NCBI RefSeq assembly: GCF_016026235.1
Contig: NZ_CP065613.1
From: Escherichia coli
GTDB taxonomy: Bacteria > Pseudomonadota > Gammaproteobacteria > Enterobacterales > Enterobacteriaceae
DNA: 64,000 nt
Reading direction: 5' to 3' (one strand)
Below are positions 12,409-49,688 of this stretch, piece after piece (position 1 is the first letter of the stretch; every line of letters starts with the position of its first letter). The notes below the pieces were generated by a model, which had not been told where the DNA came from, did no database searches, and saw only the letters and a list, made by a program, of their open reading frames with translations. The translations under genes and the position numbers were made by a program.

Positions 12409-13127
12409 CCGAGTTACCAATCGACGAAAACACACCGCGTATTTTGATCGTGGAAGATGAACCGAAGCTGGGGCAGTTGCTCATTGATTATCTGCGTGCT
12501 GCGAGCTATGCGCCGACGCTTATCAGCCACGGCGATCAGGTACTGCCGTATGTGCGCCAGACACCACCGGATCTGATCCTGTTAGATCTGATGCTCCCTG
12601 GCACCGATGGCCTGACGCTGTGCCGGGAAATTCGTCGTTTTTCTGACATTCCGATCGTGATGGTGACGGCAAAAATCGAAGAGATCGATCGCCTGCTGGG
12701 GCTGGAGATTGGCGCAGATGACTACATCTGCAAGCCGTACAGCCCACGGGAAGTGGTAGCGCGCGTCAAAACCATTTTGCGCCGTTGCAAACCGCAGCGC
12801 GAGTTGCAGCAACAGGATGCTGAAAGCCCGTTGATTATCGACGAAGGTCGTTTTCAGGCTTCATGGCGCGGTAAAATGCTTGACCTGACGCCTGCGGAAT
12901 TTCGTCTGCTGAAAACGCTCTCTCATGAACCAGGAAAAGTGTTCTCCCGCGAGCATTTGCTCAATCATCTTTATGACGACTACCGCGTAGTAACCGACCG
13001 CACCATCGACAGCCACATTAAAAACCTGCGCCGCAAGCTGGAATCTCTCGACGCCGAACAGTCATTTATCCGCGCCGTTTACGGCGTCGGTTACCGCTGG
13101 GAAGCCGACGCCTGCCGCATCGTTTAG
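12405..13127 (+). CDS. baeR: OmpR-family response regulator BaeR (240 aa)
   Basis: ORF track; receiver domain plus winged-helix C-terminus; overlaps baeS by 4 bp. Confidence 0.9.
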
Positions 13128-13281
13128 TTTTAGCGACATTATTTTGTTAGCCGGAGATGGCGTTCAGACCCGATCCGGCCACATTATCCCACGCATGGTC
13201 AGCAAACTGACATTATCTCTCCGCCCTGGCAGGCATCAGAAAATCGCTCATACTTTAATCGGTAAACAGCACCTTTAGATG

Positions 13282-14707
13282 TAATGCCAGTCAGTTAAGC
13301 AACTGACTGGCTCTTTTTCGGGGCTGTGGGGTATTTCCAGGGCCTCTCCTTTACCACTCTCGGGAAGGCCCTTCCCCTTCTCGTCGGTAATTTCACAAGT
13401 TGTCCCATACTTGCAAGATCGCGCATCAGCTCCGGTATACGTCCCGGTGAAGCGCCCTGCAATGTCATCAGCATTCTCATCACCATTCCGCATGATTCTG
13501 AGAAACTCAGTTGATTCGGCCAGTAACCTTTCAGATGTTCCGCCATTTTAATCATCTGATATCTCACCAGATTATAAGCCAGTAAGACACCCCACAGCTC
13601 TTGCTCCACAAGCTCCGGCTTTTTACTTCTCAGCGTCAGCCTGCTCAGTTGCATCGTCTGTTTTATCTCCCTGTATCCCAGTTCGATTTCCCAGCGATGA
13701 CTGTACAGATCCGCCATTTCTCCTCCGGGGAAGCGCATGGCGTCCGTCATCGACGTCAGCAGATGGCAGACTTTTCCTTTGCGCGTCACGGTCAGCAGGC
13801 GGGCTGTCACTTCATTTCCCAGTCCCGGCCACTTTTTTCGTGCCTGCGGGCTGGTTTTCAGCTTCACCAGATGATCGCCTTTACCCAGTTTTCTGAGCTC
13901 TTCATATTGCGCTCCCTTTCTGAGAGGTATCATCCAGTGGCGGTGTTCTCCCGCCAGGCTCCAGGCATTTAACAGTCCCAGTGAGTAATAACCTTTATCC
14001 ATTAACGTCAGAGTGTTATCGCCGGTTTGTTCTATAAGTTGCTCAGCAAGCTCATTTTCGCTGTTCTTCATCGTGCCGAAGGCTGCAGCCGTCAGCAGAT
14101 GGCTGGTCAGTTCCATCTGGCAGACCATTTTGACCTGCGGGTAGAGCGCCGGGTTCCCGGCATGTGTCTGGCGGGGGAAGGCTGCATCGTTCTCTGGTGT
14201 ATCCGGTGTGCGCCAGAACACACCATCGATGGCCAGCAGGGTCAGGCCGCACCAGTGCGGATGCGGCGTGGCGTTATGCCAGAGCTGCGCTGTTTTCGTG
14301 AACACGCGGCGGACAGCCTCACTTCCCAGGCGCTGGCGGGCCTGAATAACGGCACTGGGGGCAACGAAGGGGCGATTGCCCGGCAGCATGATGTCCAGGC
14401 GATTCACAATCTGGTGAAGAGGTTCTTTACGCTCAAGCGCCATGCCAACAATACACCAGACCATCATTTCGAGGGGAAGACGGCGCTTGCGTAGCGTTAC
14501 AGTACCTGATTCGGCAAGGCAACGAGAGATGAGTTCGGGGTCGAGGTAATCCCCCAGAGAAGTCAGTGGGTTACGCAGAGAATCGTAACGGGATACCAGA
14601 TCAAGAGCCTGTCCAATGTGCATAAAAAAATCCGGAAACAAGTGAGCGTTTCCGGATTCTTACACAGCCACTGGATCGGTCAACTGATCCTTAACTGATC
14701 GGCATTA
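13282..14707 (-). mobile_element. IS4, copy 1 (1426 bp)
   Basis: Ends TAATGCCAGTCAGTTAAG...CTTAACTGATCGGCATTA; 12-bp target site duplication CACCTTTAGATG at 13270-13281 and 14708-14719; inserted between baeR and yegP. Confidence 0.9.
13295..14623 (-). CDS. insG: IS4 transposase InsG (442 aa)
   Basis: ORF track 448 aa; start trimmed to [10 protein letters not shown] by recognition of IS4 transposase. Confidence 0.9.
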
Positions 14708-14755
14708 CACCTTTAGATGCTGTTTTCGATACACAATTTCAATCAAGGAGTCATT

Positions 14756-15088
14756 ATGGCTGGTTGGTTTGAACTCAGTAAGAGCAGTGATAATCAGTTC
14801 CGGTTTGTGCTAAAAGCGGGCAATGGTGAGACTATCCTCACCAGCGAGCTGTATACCTCAAAAGCCTCTGCGGAAAAGGGCATCGCGTCGGTGCGTAGCA
14901 ACAGCCCGCAAGAAGAACGCTATGAGAAAAAAACGGCAAGTAACGGCAAATTCTATTTCAATCTGAAAGCCGCTAATCATCAAATTATCGGCTCCAGCCA
15001 GATGTACGCCACCGCGCAATCTCGTGAAACCGGAATTGCCTCCGTTAAAGCCAATGGCACAAGCCAGACGGTGAAAGACAATACGTAA
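14756..15088 (+). CDS. yegP: YegP (UPF0339 family, 110 aa)
   Basis: ORF track 14717-15088; start at MAGWFELSK with GGAG SD; the IS4 end lies 49 bp upstream. Confidence 0.8.
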   Translation: MAGWFELSKSSDNQFRFVLKAGNGETILTSELYTSKASAEKGIASVRSNSPQEERYEKKTASNGKFYFNLKAANHQIIGSSQMYATAQSRETGIASVKANGTSQTVKDNT

Positions 15089-15341
15089 TTACGATGCCGG
15101 GCGTGGGTTGTTGGCGTCCGGCTTTATATCCAAATAACGCTTAGTTATTAATAATTAAGAGTAACCGCCGCCATTAAAATAGTGGGCACTGACGAGCACT
15201 CGTTGTGCTTTCTTTGTTTACCATCCCATACTTATCCTCCTGAACATGTTCATGTGCCAAAATATCTTCTAATACTTTCGTGACGCTATCCGGTTTATGA
15301 CATACACTGATGTAAGATTTTTACTTACAGGCGGGCGTAAA

Positions 15342-15593
15342 ATGGCCAGAACGATGACGGTTGATCTCGGCGATGAGTTGCGTGAATTTATCGAGTCCTT
15401 AATTGAATCCGGCGACTATCGCACCCAAAGCGAAGTGATCCGTGAGTCACTGCGATTACTTCGAGAAAAGCAAGCAGAGTCTCGCCTGCAAGCGTTACGT
15501 GACATGCTCGCAGAAGGGTTGAGTAGTGGTGAAGCTCAGCCGTGGGAAAAGGACGCGTTCTTACGGAAGGTGAAAGCAGGGATAAGGAAATAA
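15342..15593 (+). CDS. ParD-like ribbon-helix-helix antitoxin (83 aa)
   Basis: Start chosen at MARTMTVDLGDELREF; small acidic protein; stop lies 1 bp before the downstream ParE-like ORF; not at this position in K-12 as far as I recall. Confidence 0.6.
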   Translation: MARTMTVDLGDELREFIESLIESGDYRTQSEVIRESLRLLREKQAESRLQALRDMLAEGLSSGEAQPWEKDAFLRKVKAGIRK

Positions 15594-15594
15594 T

Positions 15595-15891
15595 GTGCGT
15601 ATTATTAAACTCATGCCAAAAGCCAATGAGGATTTAGAAGGCATCTGGTATTACAGCTATCACCATTTCGGCGAACCACAAGCCGACAGATATGTGGAAC
15701 ATCTTTCAGACGTTCTCCAGATTCTGAGTAACAATAATATAGGTACGCCCAGACCTGAATTAGGCGAAGGTATTTTTGTTCTTCCTTTTGAACGCCACGT
15801 CATTTATTTCCTGCAATCACCAGGGGAAATTATCGTCATTCGTATCCTTAACCAAAACCAGAACGCCACCAGACATTTACACTGGAGCTAA
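15595..15891 (+). CDS. ParE/RelE-superfamily toxin (98 aa)
   Basis: ORF track; GTG start adjacent to the antitoxin stop (alternative ATG at 15613); typical ParE length and pairing. Confidence 0.6.
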   Translation: MRIIKLMPKANEDLEGIWYYSYHHFGEPQADRYVEHLSDVLQILSNNNIGTPRPELGEGIFVLPFERHVIYFLQSPGEIIVIRILNQNQNATRHLHWS

Positions 15892-15993
15892 ACCCGCCGA
15901 TTGCGCTACAATGCCCGCCCTTAAAGTGGGGGCACTCCCCTAACCGCTTCATCAGGTGAAGCGGATCTGACCTGTCATCAGAACGAGAGAATT

Positions 15994-17355
15994 ATGTTTA
16001 AACCGGAACTCCTTTCCCCGGCGGGAACGCTGAAAAATATGCGTTACGCTTTCGCTTATGGCGCAGATGCTGTTTATGCGGGCCAGCCGCGTTATTCCCT
16101 GCGTGTGCGCAACAACGAATTCAACCACGAAAATCTTCAGCTCGGCATCAATGAAGCCCACGCGCTGGGGAAAAAGTTTTATGTCGTGGTCAACATTGCA
16201 CCGCACAACGCCAAGCTGAAAACCTTTATCCGTGACCTGAAACCGGTGGTGGAAATGGGGCCGGATGCGCTGATTATGTCCGATCCAGGGCTGATTATGC
16301 TGGTGCGTGAGCACTTCCCTGAAATGCCGATCCACCTTTCGGTGCAGGCTAACGCCGTGAACTGGGCGACGGTGAAATTCTGGCAGCAAATGGGCCTGAC
16401 CCGCGTGATCCTCTCTCGCGAGCTGTCGCTGGAAGAGATTGAAGAGATCCGCAATCAGGTGCCGGATATGGAGATCGAGATCTTCGTTCACGGCGCGCTG
16501 TGCATGGCCTACTCCGGTCGCTGCCTGCTCTCTGGCTATATCAACAAGCGCGACCCGAACCAGGGCACCTGCACCAACGCCTGCCGCTGGGAGTACAACG
16601 TCCAGGAAGGGAAAGAAGATGATGTTGGCAACATCGTACACAAGTACGAGCCGATTCCGGTGCAAAATGTTGAGCCGACGCTGGGTATCGGCGCACCAAC
16701 CGACAAAGTGTTTATGATCGAAGAGGCCCAGCGTCCGGGCGAGTATATGACCGCGTTTGAAGATGAGCACGGCACTTACATCATGAACTCGAAAGATCTG
16801 CGCGCCATCGCCCATGTAGAACGCCTGACCAAAATGGGCGTGCATTCGCTGAAAATCGAAGGTCGTACCAAATCTTTCTACTATTGTGCACGCACCGCAC
16901 AGGTTTACCGCAAAGCTATCGATGACGCCGCTGCGGGAAAACCGTTCGATACCAGCCTGCTGGAAACTCTGGAAGGTCTGGCGCATCGTGGCTATACCGA
17001 AGGTTTCCTGCGTCGTCATACTCACGACGATTATCAGAACTACGAATACGGTTATTCAGTTTCTGACCGCCAGCAGTTTGTTGGTGAGTTTACCGGTGAG
17101 CGCAAGGGGGACCTCGCGGCGGTAGCGGTGAAAAATAAATTCTCCGTTGGCGACAGCCTTGAGCTGATGACGCCGCAAGGCAACATTAATTTTACCCTTG
17201 AGCACATGGAAAACGCCAAAGGCGAAGCTATGCCGATAGCACCAGGCGATGGTTATACTGTGTGGCTCCCGGTCCCGCAGGATCTTGAGCTCAATTACGC
17301 GCTGCTGATGCGTAATTTCTCCGGGGAAACCACGCGTAATCCCCACGGTAAGTGA
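15994..17355 (+). CDS. yegQ: U32-family peptidase YegQ / RlhA (453 aa)
   Basis: ORF track; sequence recognised as K-12 YegQ. Confidence 0.88.
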   Translation: MFKPELLSPAGTLKNMRYAFAYGADAVYAGQPRYSLRVRNNEFNHENLQLGINEAHALGKKFYVVVNIAPHNAKLKTFIRDLKPVVEMGPDALIMSDPGLIMLVREHFPEMPIHLSVQANAVNWATVKFWQQMGLTRVILSRELSLEEIEEIRNQVPDMEIEIFVHGALCMAYSGRCLLSGYINKRDPNQGTCTNACRWEYNVQEGKEDDVGNIVHKYEPIPVQNVEPTLGIGAPTDKVFMIEEAQRPGEYMTAFEDEHGTYIMNSKDLRAIAHVERLTKMGVHSLKIEGRTKSFYYCARTAQVYRKAIDDAAAGKPFDTSLLETLEGLAHRGYTEGFLRRHTHDDYQNYEYGYSVSDRQQFVGEFTGERKGDLAAVAVKNKFSVGDSLELMTPQGNINFTLEHMENAKGEAMPIAPGDGYTVWLPVPQDLELNYALLMRNFSGETTRNPHGK

Positions 17356-17439
17356 TTAATTTCGATTATTTTTCCCGGATGGAAAATTCTTAGAAACCGA
17401 TCACATACAGCTGCATTTATTAAGGTTATCATCCGTTTC

Positions 17440-17526
17440 GCTGAAAAACATAACCCATAAAATGCTAGCTGTACCAGGAACCACCTCCTTAGCCTGTGTA
17501 ATCTCCCTTACACGGGCTTATTTTTT
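17440..17526 (+). ncRNA. cyaR: CyaR (RyeE) Hfq-dependent sRNA
   Basis: 87-nt match to remembered CyaR sequence GCUGAAAAACAUAACCCAUAAAAUGCUAGCUGUACCAGGAACCACCUCCUUAGCCUGUGUAAUCUCCCUUACACGGGCUUAUUUUUU, ending in a terminator hairpin and T-run. Confidence 0.85.
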
Positions 17527-17684
17527 ATGCATAAGCCCTATCCCTGGTCACCGTCTTCCATTGACCACATCGATAGAATCTCCCTTCATAGCACGATGCC
17601 TTTCACGTAACGGCATCGTGCTCGCACAGGTTCCGGCTAAGCACAACCAGAACGCGCATGTTTGACGCTTACCAAAAAATATTC

Positions 17685-18002
17685 TCACTCTCCACATTTG
17701 AATGTCAGACGAGCGACGCCATGTAATCCTGCACCTTCTGTCTTCAGGTCAACTATCTGCATTTTTTTGCCCTGAGTAACACAGAAATGGGCTGCATCAT
17801 TTTTTACTATATTTTCTGCACCAGATATTCTGCCCCTGGCTAAAGAAGCTTCGGCTTCGGTGTAGTATTGGTTATCGAGTTTACGCTGAATATTACTTTT
17901 ATATGCAAGACCAAATTTACCGATACTTGTCTCATCATTATGCACAGCACAACCAGACATAATAAAAATACTAATTAATGATATAGCAGCTATCTTTTTC
18001 AT
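17685..18002 (-). CDS. yegR: YegR small lipoprotein (105 aa)
   Basis: ORF track 17685-18062; start trimmed to MKKIAAISLISIFIMSGC (signal peptide with lipobox). Confidence 0.75.
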   Translation of the reverse strand: MKKIAAISLISIFIMSGCAVHNDETSIGKFGLAYKSNIQRKLDNQYYTEAEASLARGRISGAENIVKNDAAHFCVTQGKKMQIVDLKTEGAGLHGVARLTFKCGE

Positions 18003-18407
18003 CTCACCTTCCCCCATTAAATACCAACGACACTCTCTAGTGTTTAAATATAATAATGGCATGATTATTATAATTGAATAGGATTATAATAAATGTTCTG
18101 TACAACATTTCCTACATAAGTAGGAATTACGGACATTGAGGCCCTTCAGGGTAACTCCATGGGGGCTTTAATATATTATATTGAAGATGCCACTGTTTAG
18201 TTGAATATTAGGTATATGCTCTTTTTTGAAATTTATCGGTGGCAGCCGTTAGTATTCGCTGTCCCCATTGCAAGCTCCTGGTGGTAACCACTGAATCCTC
18301 CATACTTGAACTGACTTTTTATCCTCCGACTTTCATCCTGTTCTGACTCCACCTTTTGTTTTCTGCTCTACACTATCTACAGACCAATCATAAAGGCACA
18401 TACGATC

Positions 18408-19307
18408 ATGGCAGAATTTCCCGCCAGCTTACTGATTCTTAATGGCAAAAGTACTGACAATCTACCCTTGCGCGAAGCAATTATGCTGTTGCGTGAGGAA
18501 GGAATGACGATCCATGTGCGGGTCACCTGGGAGAAAGGCGATGCCGCACGATATGTAGAGGAGGCCCGGAAGTTGGGCGTCGCAACGGTGATTGCCGGTG
18601 GTGGCGATGGCACCATTAATGAAGTTTCTACGGCGTTGATTCAGTGTGAGGGGGATGACATACCCGCGCTGGGAATTTTGCCATTAGGAACCGCCAATGA
18701 TTTTGCCACCAGTGTAGGGATTCCTGAGGCACTGGATAAGGCGCTGAAACTGGCAATTGCCGGTAATGCCATTGCGATAGATATGGCGCAGGTCAACAAA
18801 CAAACCTGTTTTATTAATATGGCGACAGGCGGGTTTGGGACGCGTATTACCACAGAAACGCCGGAAAAATTAAAAGCCGCGCTGGGTGGCGTCTCATACA
18901 TCATTCATGGCTTAATGCGTATGGATACTCTGCAACCGGACCGTTGTGAAATCCGCGGTGAAAACTTTCACTGGCAAGGTGACGCCCTGGTCATTGGTAT
19001 TGGTAACGGGCGTCAGGCCGGTGGCGGTCAACAATTGTGCCCGAACGCGTTAATTAACGATGGCTTGCTGCAACTGCGCATTTTTACCGGCGATGAAATT
19101 CTTCCGGCTCTCGTATCAACCTTAAAATCTGACGAAGATAACCCGAATATTATCGAAGGCGCTTCGTCGTGGTTTGATATACAAGCCCCACACGAAATCA
19201 CTTTTAATCTTGATGGCGAACCGTTGAGTGGACAAAACTTTCATATTGAAATACTTCCGGCGGCGTTGCGTTGTCGATTACCACCAGATTGTCCATTATT
19301 GCGTTAA
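18408..19307 (+). CDS. yegS: Lipid kinase YegS (299 aa)
   Basis: ORF track; diacylglycerol-kinase-like GGDGT motif; sequence recognised. Confidence 0.88.
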
Positions 19308-48262: not shown

Positions 48263-49688
48263 TAATGCCAGTCAGTTAAGCAACTGACTGGCTCTTTTTC
48301 GGGGCTGTGGGGTATTTCCAGGGCCTCTCCTTTACCACTCTCGGGAAGGCCCTTCCCCTTCTCGTCGGTAATTTCACAAGTTGTCCCATACTTGCAAGAT
48401 CGCGCATCAGCTCCGGTATACGTCCCGGTGAAGCGCCCTGCAATGTCATCAGCATTCTCATCACCATTCCGCATGATTCTGAGAAACTCAGTTGATTCGG
48501 CCAGTAACCTTTCAGATGTTCCGCCATTTTAATCATCTGATATCTCACCAGATTATAAGCCAGTAAGACACCCTACAGCTCTTGCTCCACAAGCTCCGGC
48601 TTTTTACTTCTCAGCGTCAGCCTGCTCAGTTGCATCGTCTGTTTTATCTCCCTGTATCCCAGTTCGATTTCCCAGCGATGACTGTACAGATCCGCCATTT
48701 CTCCTCCGGGGAAGCGCATGGCGTCCGTCATCGACGTCAGCAGATGGCAGACTTTTCCTTTGCGCGTCACGGTCAGCAGGCGGGCTGTCACTTCATTTCC
48801 CAGTCCCGGCCACTTTTTTCGTGCCTGCGGGCTGGTTTTCAGCTTCACCAGATGATCGCCTTTACCCAGTTTTCTGAGCTCTTCATATTGCGCTCCCTTT
48901 CTGAGAGGTATCATCCAGTGGCGGTGTTCTCCCGCCAGGCTCCAGGCATTTAACAGTCCCAGTGAGTAATAACCTTTATCCATTAACGTCAGAGTGTTAT
49001 CGCCGGTTTGTTCTATAAGTTGCTCAGCAAGCTCATTTTCGCTGTTCTTCATCGTGCCGAAGGCTGCAGCCGTCAGCAGATGGCTGGTCAGTTCCATCTG
49101 GCAGACCATTTTGACCTGCGGGTAGAGCGCCGGGTTCCCGGCATGTGTCTGGCGGGGGAAGGCTGCATCGTTCTCTGGTGTATCCGGTGTGCGCCAGAAC
49201 ACACCATCGATGGCCAGCAGGGTCAGGCCGCACCAGTGCGGATGCGGCGTGGCGTTATGCCAGAGCTGCGCTGTTTTCGTGAACACGCGGCGGACAGCCT
49301 CACTTCCCAGGCGCTGGCGGGCCTGAATAACGGCACTGGGGGCAACGAAGGGGCGATTGCCCGGCAGCATGATGTCCAGGCGATTCACAATCTGGTGAAG
49401 AGGTTCTTTACGCTCAAGCGCCATGCCAACAATACACCAGACCATCATTTCGAGGGGAAGACGGCGCTTGCGTAGCGTTACAGTACCTGATTCGGCAAGG
49501 CAACGAGAGATGAGTTCGGGGTCGAGGTAATCCCCCAGAGAAGTCAGTGGGTTACGCAGAGAATCGTAACGGGATACCAGATCAAGAGCCTGTCCAATGT
49601 GCATAAAAAAATCCGGAAACAAGTGAGCGTTTCCGGATTCTTACACAGCCACTGGATCGGTCAACTGATCCTTAACTGATCGGCATTA
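48263..49688 (-). mobile_element. IS4, copy 2 (1426 bp)
   Basis: Same ends as copy 1; 12-bp target site duplication CTTACAAGGATG at 48251-48262 and 49689-49700. Confidence 0.9.
48276..49604 (-). pseudogene. insG: IS4 transposase with premature amber codon
   Basis: Single C-to-T difference at 48574 relative to copy 1 (13593) changes TGG (Trp) to TAG at 48573-48575; the ORF track shows the split 349 aa + 90 aa. Confidence 0.85.

Follow-up and report, generated by a model that had tools for sequence, protein, structure and literature searches.

The window analyzed here is a 64,000-nt stretch of Escherichia coli DNA (contig NZ_CP065613.1). In it, the plus-strand gene baeR ends at position 13127 and is followed by a native spacer (13128-13281), an IS4 element and the yegP start codon, which begins at position 14756 (Table 1). 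The original prediction had identified the element as IS4, with its end at -49 relative to the yegP start codon, and this was confirmed: the last IS4 base (14707) is at -49, position 14708 is the first base past the element, and 48 bp (14708-14755) intervene between the IS4 and the ATG. The start codon (MAGWFELS...) agrees with the annotation in K-12 and other E. coli. YegP matched the Pfam family DUF1508 (PF07411) at 1.7e-45, in two matched stretches arranged in tandem, and the protein is the same in six IS4-bearing E. coli genomes and one residue away from that of K-12. An in-frame ATG at position 14717, inside the right copy of the target-site duplication, opens a 123-aa ORF consisting of yegP and 13 additional codons. 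The same ATG is present in the empty site of K-12 and has no Shine-Dalgarno sequence, and the extended ORF is probably meaningless.

Table 1. Coordinates of the features between the yegP promoter and the end of yegP (window positions)
Feature	Position	Strand	Description
Native yegP promoter	13226-13254	+	-35 CTGGCA (13226-13231), 17-bp spacer, -10 CATACT (13249-13254)
Equivalent of the yegP transcription start (G)	13261	+	K-12 transcription start mapped onto the window
Target-site duplication, left copy	13270-13281	.	CACCTTTAGATG; leader +10 to +21; repeat search
Complete IS4	13282-14707	-	1426 bp; IRR 13282-13299 (baeR side), IRL 14690-14707 (yegP side)
IRR-end terminator-like hairpin	13286-13320	+	GCCAGTCAGTT-AAGC-AACTGACTGGC, then TCTTTTT; terminator scan
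IS4 transposase ORF (InsG-type)	13295-14623	-	442 aa from ATG 14623; 448 aa from TTG 14641; intact
IRL-end hairpin	14661-14626	-	Overlaps the -10 of the transposase promoter; then a U-run just 5' of the transposase ATG
Transposase promoter-like site	14683 to 14656	-	TTGACC-16-(TG)AAGAAT; promoter scan; PWM 12.2; directed away from yegP
Target-site duplication, right copy	14708-14719	.	CACCTTTAGATG; repeat search
Leftover 3' yegP leader	14720-14755	+	36 nt; Shine-Dalgarno AAGGAG at 14745-14750
yegP CDS	14756-15088	+	110 aa, two DUF1508 repeats, intact; ORF listing

A complete IS4 in the baeR-yegP spacer

The element is bounded by imperfect 18-bp terminal inverted repeats (TAATGCCAGTCAGTTAAG / TAATGCCGATCAGTTAAG) that start with TAATGCC, with 16 of 18 positions matching. 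A 12-bp direct repeat, CACCTTTAGATG, flanks the element without a mismatch, and this target duplication is within the 10-13 bp range of the IS4 subgroup (De Palmenaer et al. 2008, PMC2266710). The sole ORF, whose stop codon is at 13295-13297 in the ORF listing, encodes a DDE transposase with an IS4 N-terminal domain (Pfam Nterm_IS4 and DDE_Tnp_1), and it matched the NCBIfam profile transpos_IS4_1 at 1.4e-90, scoring 303.8 bits where the cut-off is 115. Both ends of the element and the ORF are intact. When compared with the K-12 reference IS4 (the insG element, NC_000913.3 4502090-4503515), 1420 of 1426 nucleotides (99.6%) are identical. The K-12 copy likewise has a length of 1426 bp, 18-bp imperfect repeats, a 12-bp duplication and a 442-aa DDE ORF, and it differs in six nucleotides, in four amino-acid residues that separate the transposase at the yegP site from InsG, and in its location, which is the yjgZ-nanX spacer. 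Thus, the element at the yegP site is a canonical IS4 in its length, inverted repeats, target duplication, ORF and identity to the reference.

In K-12 MG1655, the site is empty and contains one copy of CACCTTTAGATG, and the spacer is otherwise identical. Therefore, this was a simple insertion by which no flanking DNA was lost. It had been proposed that the IS4 replaces the DNA upstream of yegP; this part of the proposal does not hold, and all of the native upstream sequence is kept at 13128-13281. The proposal that the transposase gene is oriented opposite to yegP is correct, since the ORF is on the minus strand, starts at ATG 14623 and is divergent from yegP. The promoter-like site in front of this ORF is the sole strong promoter-like site that was found in the scans of the IS4 and of the retained leader.

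Terminator-like hairpins occur at both ends of the IS4 and face inward (13286-13320 on the plus strand and 14626-14661 on the minus strand). The minus-strand fold at the IRL end had a free energy of -39.8 kcal/mol (z = -4.9). Only transcripts that come into the IS4 from outside could form this hairpin, and in this it resembles the way in which other insertion sequences are known to be protected from activation by read-through.

A second complete IS4 was observed at 48263-49688 of the window, approximately 35 kb from the copy at yegP. It is flanked by the 12-bp duplication CTTACAAGGATG, differs from the yegP copy by one nucleotide and disrupts a gene that belongs to the DUF4132 family (yehH/yehI group). 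Given that the two copies in the window are near-identical, IS4 appears to have been active recently in this genome.

Position of the IS4 relative to the yegP promoter

By SELEX with the RpoD holoenzyme, an RNA-polymerase binding site was located in the baeR>yegP spacer, and the promoter CTGGCA-17-CATACT was assigned to it (Shimada et al. 2014, PMC3946193). The same hexamer pair was the top match of our position weight matrix (PWM) in the baeR-yegP spacer, with a score of only 6.3. The yegP transcription start has been mapped at 2163156 on the plus strand of NC_000913.2, with a 5'UTR of 57 nt, and the sequence upstream of it ends with ...CGCTCATACTTTAATCG / ...CCCTGGCAGGCATCAGAAAATCGCTCATACTTTAATCG (Kim et al. 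2012, PMC3415461 and its supplement). It is the only yegP start in that table, in which it is represented by 13 reads from a single dataset of K-12. The mapped start and the SELEX promoter come from independent studies and agree with each other. We found no match for the yegP start in the supplements of Ettwiller et al. 2016, nor among the listed rows of the TSS table of Cho et al. 2014.

The sequences of the promoter and the leader are the same in the window and K-12, and the mapped start corresponds to position 13261. From this, it follows that the IS4 begins at leader position +22, inside the 57-nt leader. The promoter is intact, and the distance between the start on the promoter side and the yegP ATG is now 1,495 bp, compared with 57 in the empty site. 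Judging from the K-12 data and the identity of the two sequences, the promoter is therefore separated from yegP by the entire element. The original prediction had placed the IS4 upstream of the yegP promoter region; instead, the promoter (13226-13254) and the start (13261) are both on the baeR side, and an insertion that splits the leader is more disruptive than had been proposed.

The start site was measured in K-12, and the RpoS dependence of yegP in both K-12 and EDL933. yegP ranks among the more strongly RpoS-dependent genes. In EDL933, this dependence was reported to be 185-fold (PMC2907692), and the log2 signal of yegP in K-12 was approximately 13.6 in the wild type and approximately 7.2 in the delta-rpoS strain (PMC3923258, table S7).

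Expected effect of the insertion on yegP

The hairpin at the IRR end is oriented towards incoming transcription, whether from baeR or from the yegP promoter. Its stem of 11 bp contains 6 G-C pairs and closes a 4-nt loop, a T-run follows, and the RNA fold of 13261-13330 was far more stable than those of shuffled sequences (-29.3 kcal/mol, z = -4.1). This is the form of an intrinsic (Rho-independent) terminator, and the hairpin is accordingly predicted to terminate transcription. The proposal that the IS4 separates yegP from mdt-bae transcription is also correct, and the end of the element facing baeR has the terminator-like hairpin and T-run.

On the other side of the element, the plus-strand promoter scan of the retained 48 bp found nothing at the 9-of-12 threshold. 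The best plus-strand PWM score in the last 150 bp of the IS4 together with these 48 bp was 4.3, compared with a background of 7.0 (the median best score of 186-nt windows of the same sequence), and the plus-strand candidates within the IS4 were no better than background. Consensus promoter scans are weak predictors, and the native yegP promoter itself scored only 6.3, so that the junction may contain a weak promoter of a hybrid or sigma-S type.

The best explanation of the whole, to which we assign a probability of roughly three in four, is that the IS4 in the leader palindrome uncouples yegP from its sigma-S-dependent promoter. According to this explanation, a standard copy of IS4 transposed into the palindrome of the yegP leader, of which positions +10 to +21 became the target duplication. 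The intact sigma-S-dependent promoter would then fire into the IRR end, with the hairpin and T-run approximately 25-55 nt past the start, and beyond the hairpin the transcript would continue as a 1.4 kb untranslated RNA that is antisense to the transposase gene. yegP is left with 48 bp of upstream sequence, in which the duplicated 12 bp precede the 36 nt at the 3' end of the leader and no promoter is recognisable, and the transposase promoter of the adjoining IS4 reads the other way. The outcome would be that yegP expression is lost or strongly cut, that RpoS control is lost and that read-through from mdtABCD-baeSR is blocked. Because of the hairpin, the 1.4-kb antisense stretch, the 48 bp with no recognisable promoter and the reversed transposase promoter, we expect yegP to be silenced or strongly reduced, and the gene is most likely cut off from both its sigma-S promoter and bae read-through.

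We also considered that yegP may have been rewired and not silenced, if a new outward or hybrid promoter, composed of the IRL end of the IS4 and the leader, still expresses it. Elsewhere in the IS4 family, for example in ISAba1 and IS1999, outward or hybrid promoters have been documented (PMC9330008), and weak hexamer pairs are present here (TTAACT at 14691, 17-nt spacing, TAGATG; and TTTAGA at 14712, 16-nt spacing, CAATTT). In addition, no genome bearing the insertion shows any damage to the yegP ORF, which fits a recent insertion but would also fit continued expression. However, the candidate pairs scored 4.1-4.3, below the median best score of 7.0 for random 186-nt windows, and all were under the 9-of-12 threshold. 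The TAGATG candidate for the -10 does not have the invariant final T, transcription from the CAATTT candidate would start in or past the Shine-Dalgarno sequence, and for IS4 itself our literature search turned up no outward promoter. We therefore regard such rewiring as unlikely.

It seems rather improbable, too, that native yegP or baeR transcripts read through the whole IS4, so that yegP would remain RpoS-regulated at a reduced level. Intrinsic terminators are seldom fully efficient, and the second hairpin of the IS4 (14626-14661) is not followed by a T-run on the plus strand; however, the hairpin and T-run at the IRR end have the form of a strong terminator, and any transcript passing them would have to continue through 1.4 kb of untranslated antisense RNA. 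Long untranslated antisense RNA is a good substrate for Rho, and classical IS4 insertions are reportedly polar. Hardly credible is a yegP promoter inside the retained 48 bp, such that the IS4 removes upstream context and read-through only: the weak A/T-rich hexamers GATACA and CACAAT in 14728-14737 are all that speaks in its favour, whereas the sole mapped K-12 start, 57 nt 5' of the ATG, and the SELEX promoter further upstream both lie outside the retained 49 bp, and with a promoter so near the ATG there would be hardly any leader ahead of the Shine-Dalgarno sequence.

The uncoupling of yegP from the sigma-S promoter by a leader insertion is a textbook mechanism, and it involves no new kind of element or mechanism. 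A similar case is an IS4 insertion in the pheST attenuator, reportedly described by Mayaux et al. in 1984. In polar leader insertions of the pheST type, an insertion sequence is likewise located in a terminator-like leader hairpin and splits the gene from its promoter. The two cases differ in that no attenuator function is known for the yegP leader hairpin, and the effect on yegP is a predicted one. For annotation, this means that expression of yegP within the RpoS regulon should not be taken for granted, either in this strain or in the six E. coli genomes that carry the same insertion.

Target preference and probable recurrence of the insertion

The empty site, AAACAGCACCTTTAGATGCTGTTTT, spans leader positions +4 to +27 and consists of an A-tract, the stem CAGCA/TGCTG with an 8-nt loop, and a T-tract, in which the palindrome is AAACAGCA-N8-TGCTGTTTT. 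For comparison, we collected further IS4 sites (n = 14): those of the other window copy and of the K-12 copy, three more from E. coli genomes, and nine from public assemblies in which exactly the transposase of the yegP site is encoded. When the yegP site was included, a duplication of 11-13 bp was found in 13 of 14 non-redundant IS4 sites, and one had mismatched flanks. Most of the 14 sites lie between an A-run and a T-run, and their core is often a G+C-rich palindrome. Many of the targets look like intrinsic terminators, and several clearly are the terminators of neighbouring genes, such as AAAACGGCAGCCTTGAGCTGCCGTTTTTTT, located 3' of bamD (locus L010), and another terminator-like target is locus L024 (site survey of loci L008, L010 and L022-L032). 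This agrees with the AAA-N20-TTT consensus that Mayaux et al. are said to have given for IS4 targets in 1984. Strong specificity in the target arms has been reported for the IS4 subgroup (De Palmenaer et al. 2008, PMC2266710), and this family-level statement was the only one on IS4 target specificity found in our search of the literature. The yegP site is thus typical of an IS4 preference for terminator-like sites with an A-tract, hairpin and T-tract, and this preference steers IS4 into leaders and intergenic terminators.

An IS4 of E. coli strain GN02350 (locus L009, NZ_CP095518.1) has the non-matching flanks CACCGCAAGGTG / CTTCAGGAGGAG and joins rraA to yhjB, which are far apart in K-12. This suggests that two IS4 copies took part in an inversion or rearrangement. 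We also considered that the IS4 beside rraA in this genome is a recombinant with 46 bp of the yegP left flank; this was rejected, because the match was a low-identity extension (85%) and the flanks of this copy are unrelated to the yegP site.

Among 5,426 complete E. coli genomes, both yegP-IS4 junctions were present in six (21AR0173, AREA_492, FDAARGOS_536, A25, DCE7 and NN5), in which an IS4 is annotated at the yegP site. The position, the orientation and the 12-bp duplication are the same in all six. When grouped by flank haplotype together with IS4 allele, these carriers and the window form four combinations: the first is the window itself; the second comprises 21AR0173, AREA_492 and FDAARGOS_536; the third comprises A25 and DCE7, whose left flank is approximately 3.5% diverged; and the fourth is NN5, whose IS4 copy has decayed. 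The IS4 copy is frameshifted in two of the six carriers. Given that the same insertion is found on several flank backgrounds, this distribution suggests that the site is a hot spot at which IS4 has inserted independently, which would be the simplest and most likely explanation. The preference of IS4 for terminator-like targets would account for the same base pair being hit independently across lineages. A single old insertion that was inherited vertically is unlikely, since only 6 of 5,426 genomes carry it, the divergence of the flanks reaches 3.5% and the IS4 alleles differ.

Positive selection for insertions at yegP is not needed to explain these data, and it is unlikely because the insertion is rare. 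The abundant and strongly RpoS-dependent yegP has no assigned function, and its homologues have recently been found beside the capK-capS stress/immune regulators. As a long shot, the yegP leader may be a repeated target of IS4 not only as a preferred site but also since switching off or rewiring yegP gives an advantage in some niches, and the orphaned sigma-S promoter may in addition yield a stationary-phase RNA of approximately 55-60 nt that is antisense to the 3' end of the transposase mRNA, which would tie the control of IS4 to RpoS.

Several other features were observed in the window. The Rfam scan detected no RNA family in or near 14708-14760, and the sole match in 12900-18500 was the CyaR sRNA gene (RF00112, 100.7 bits), which is located at 17438-17523, downstream of yegQ/trhP as in K-12. 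A gene pair encoding a ParD (CC2985-type) antitoxin and a ParE/RelE toxin occupies 15297-15891, in the interval from yegP to yegQ/trhP; K-12 lacks it, NN5 is the only one of the six IS4-bearing genomes to have it, and it occurs in many other assemblies. Finally, an IS1 terminal sequence with one mismatch to the IS1 end was found at 41069-41107, in the yeh fimbrial region, and a related E. coli genome has an IS1 inside the usher gene yehB.
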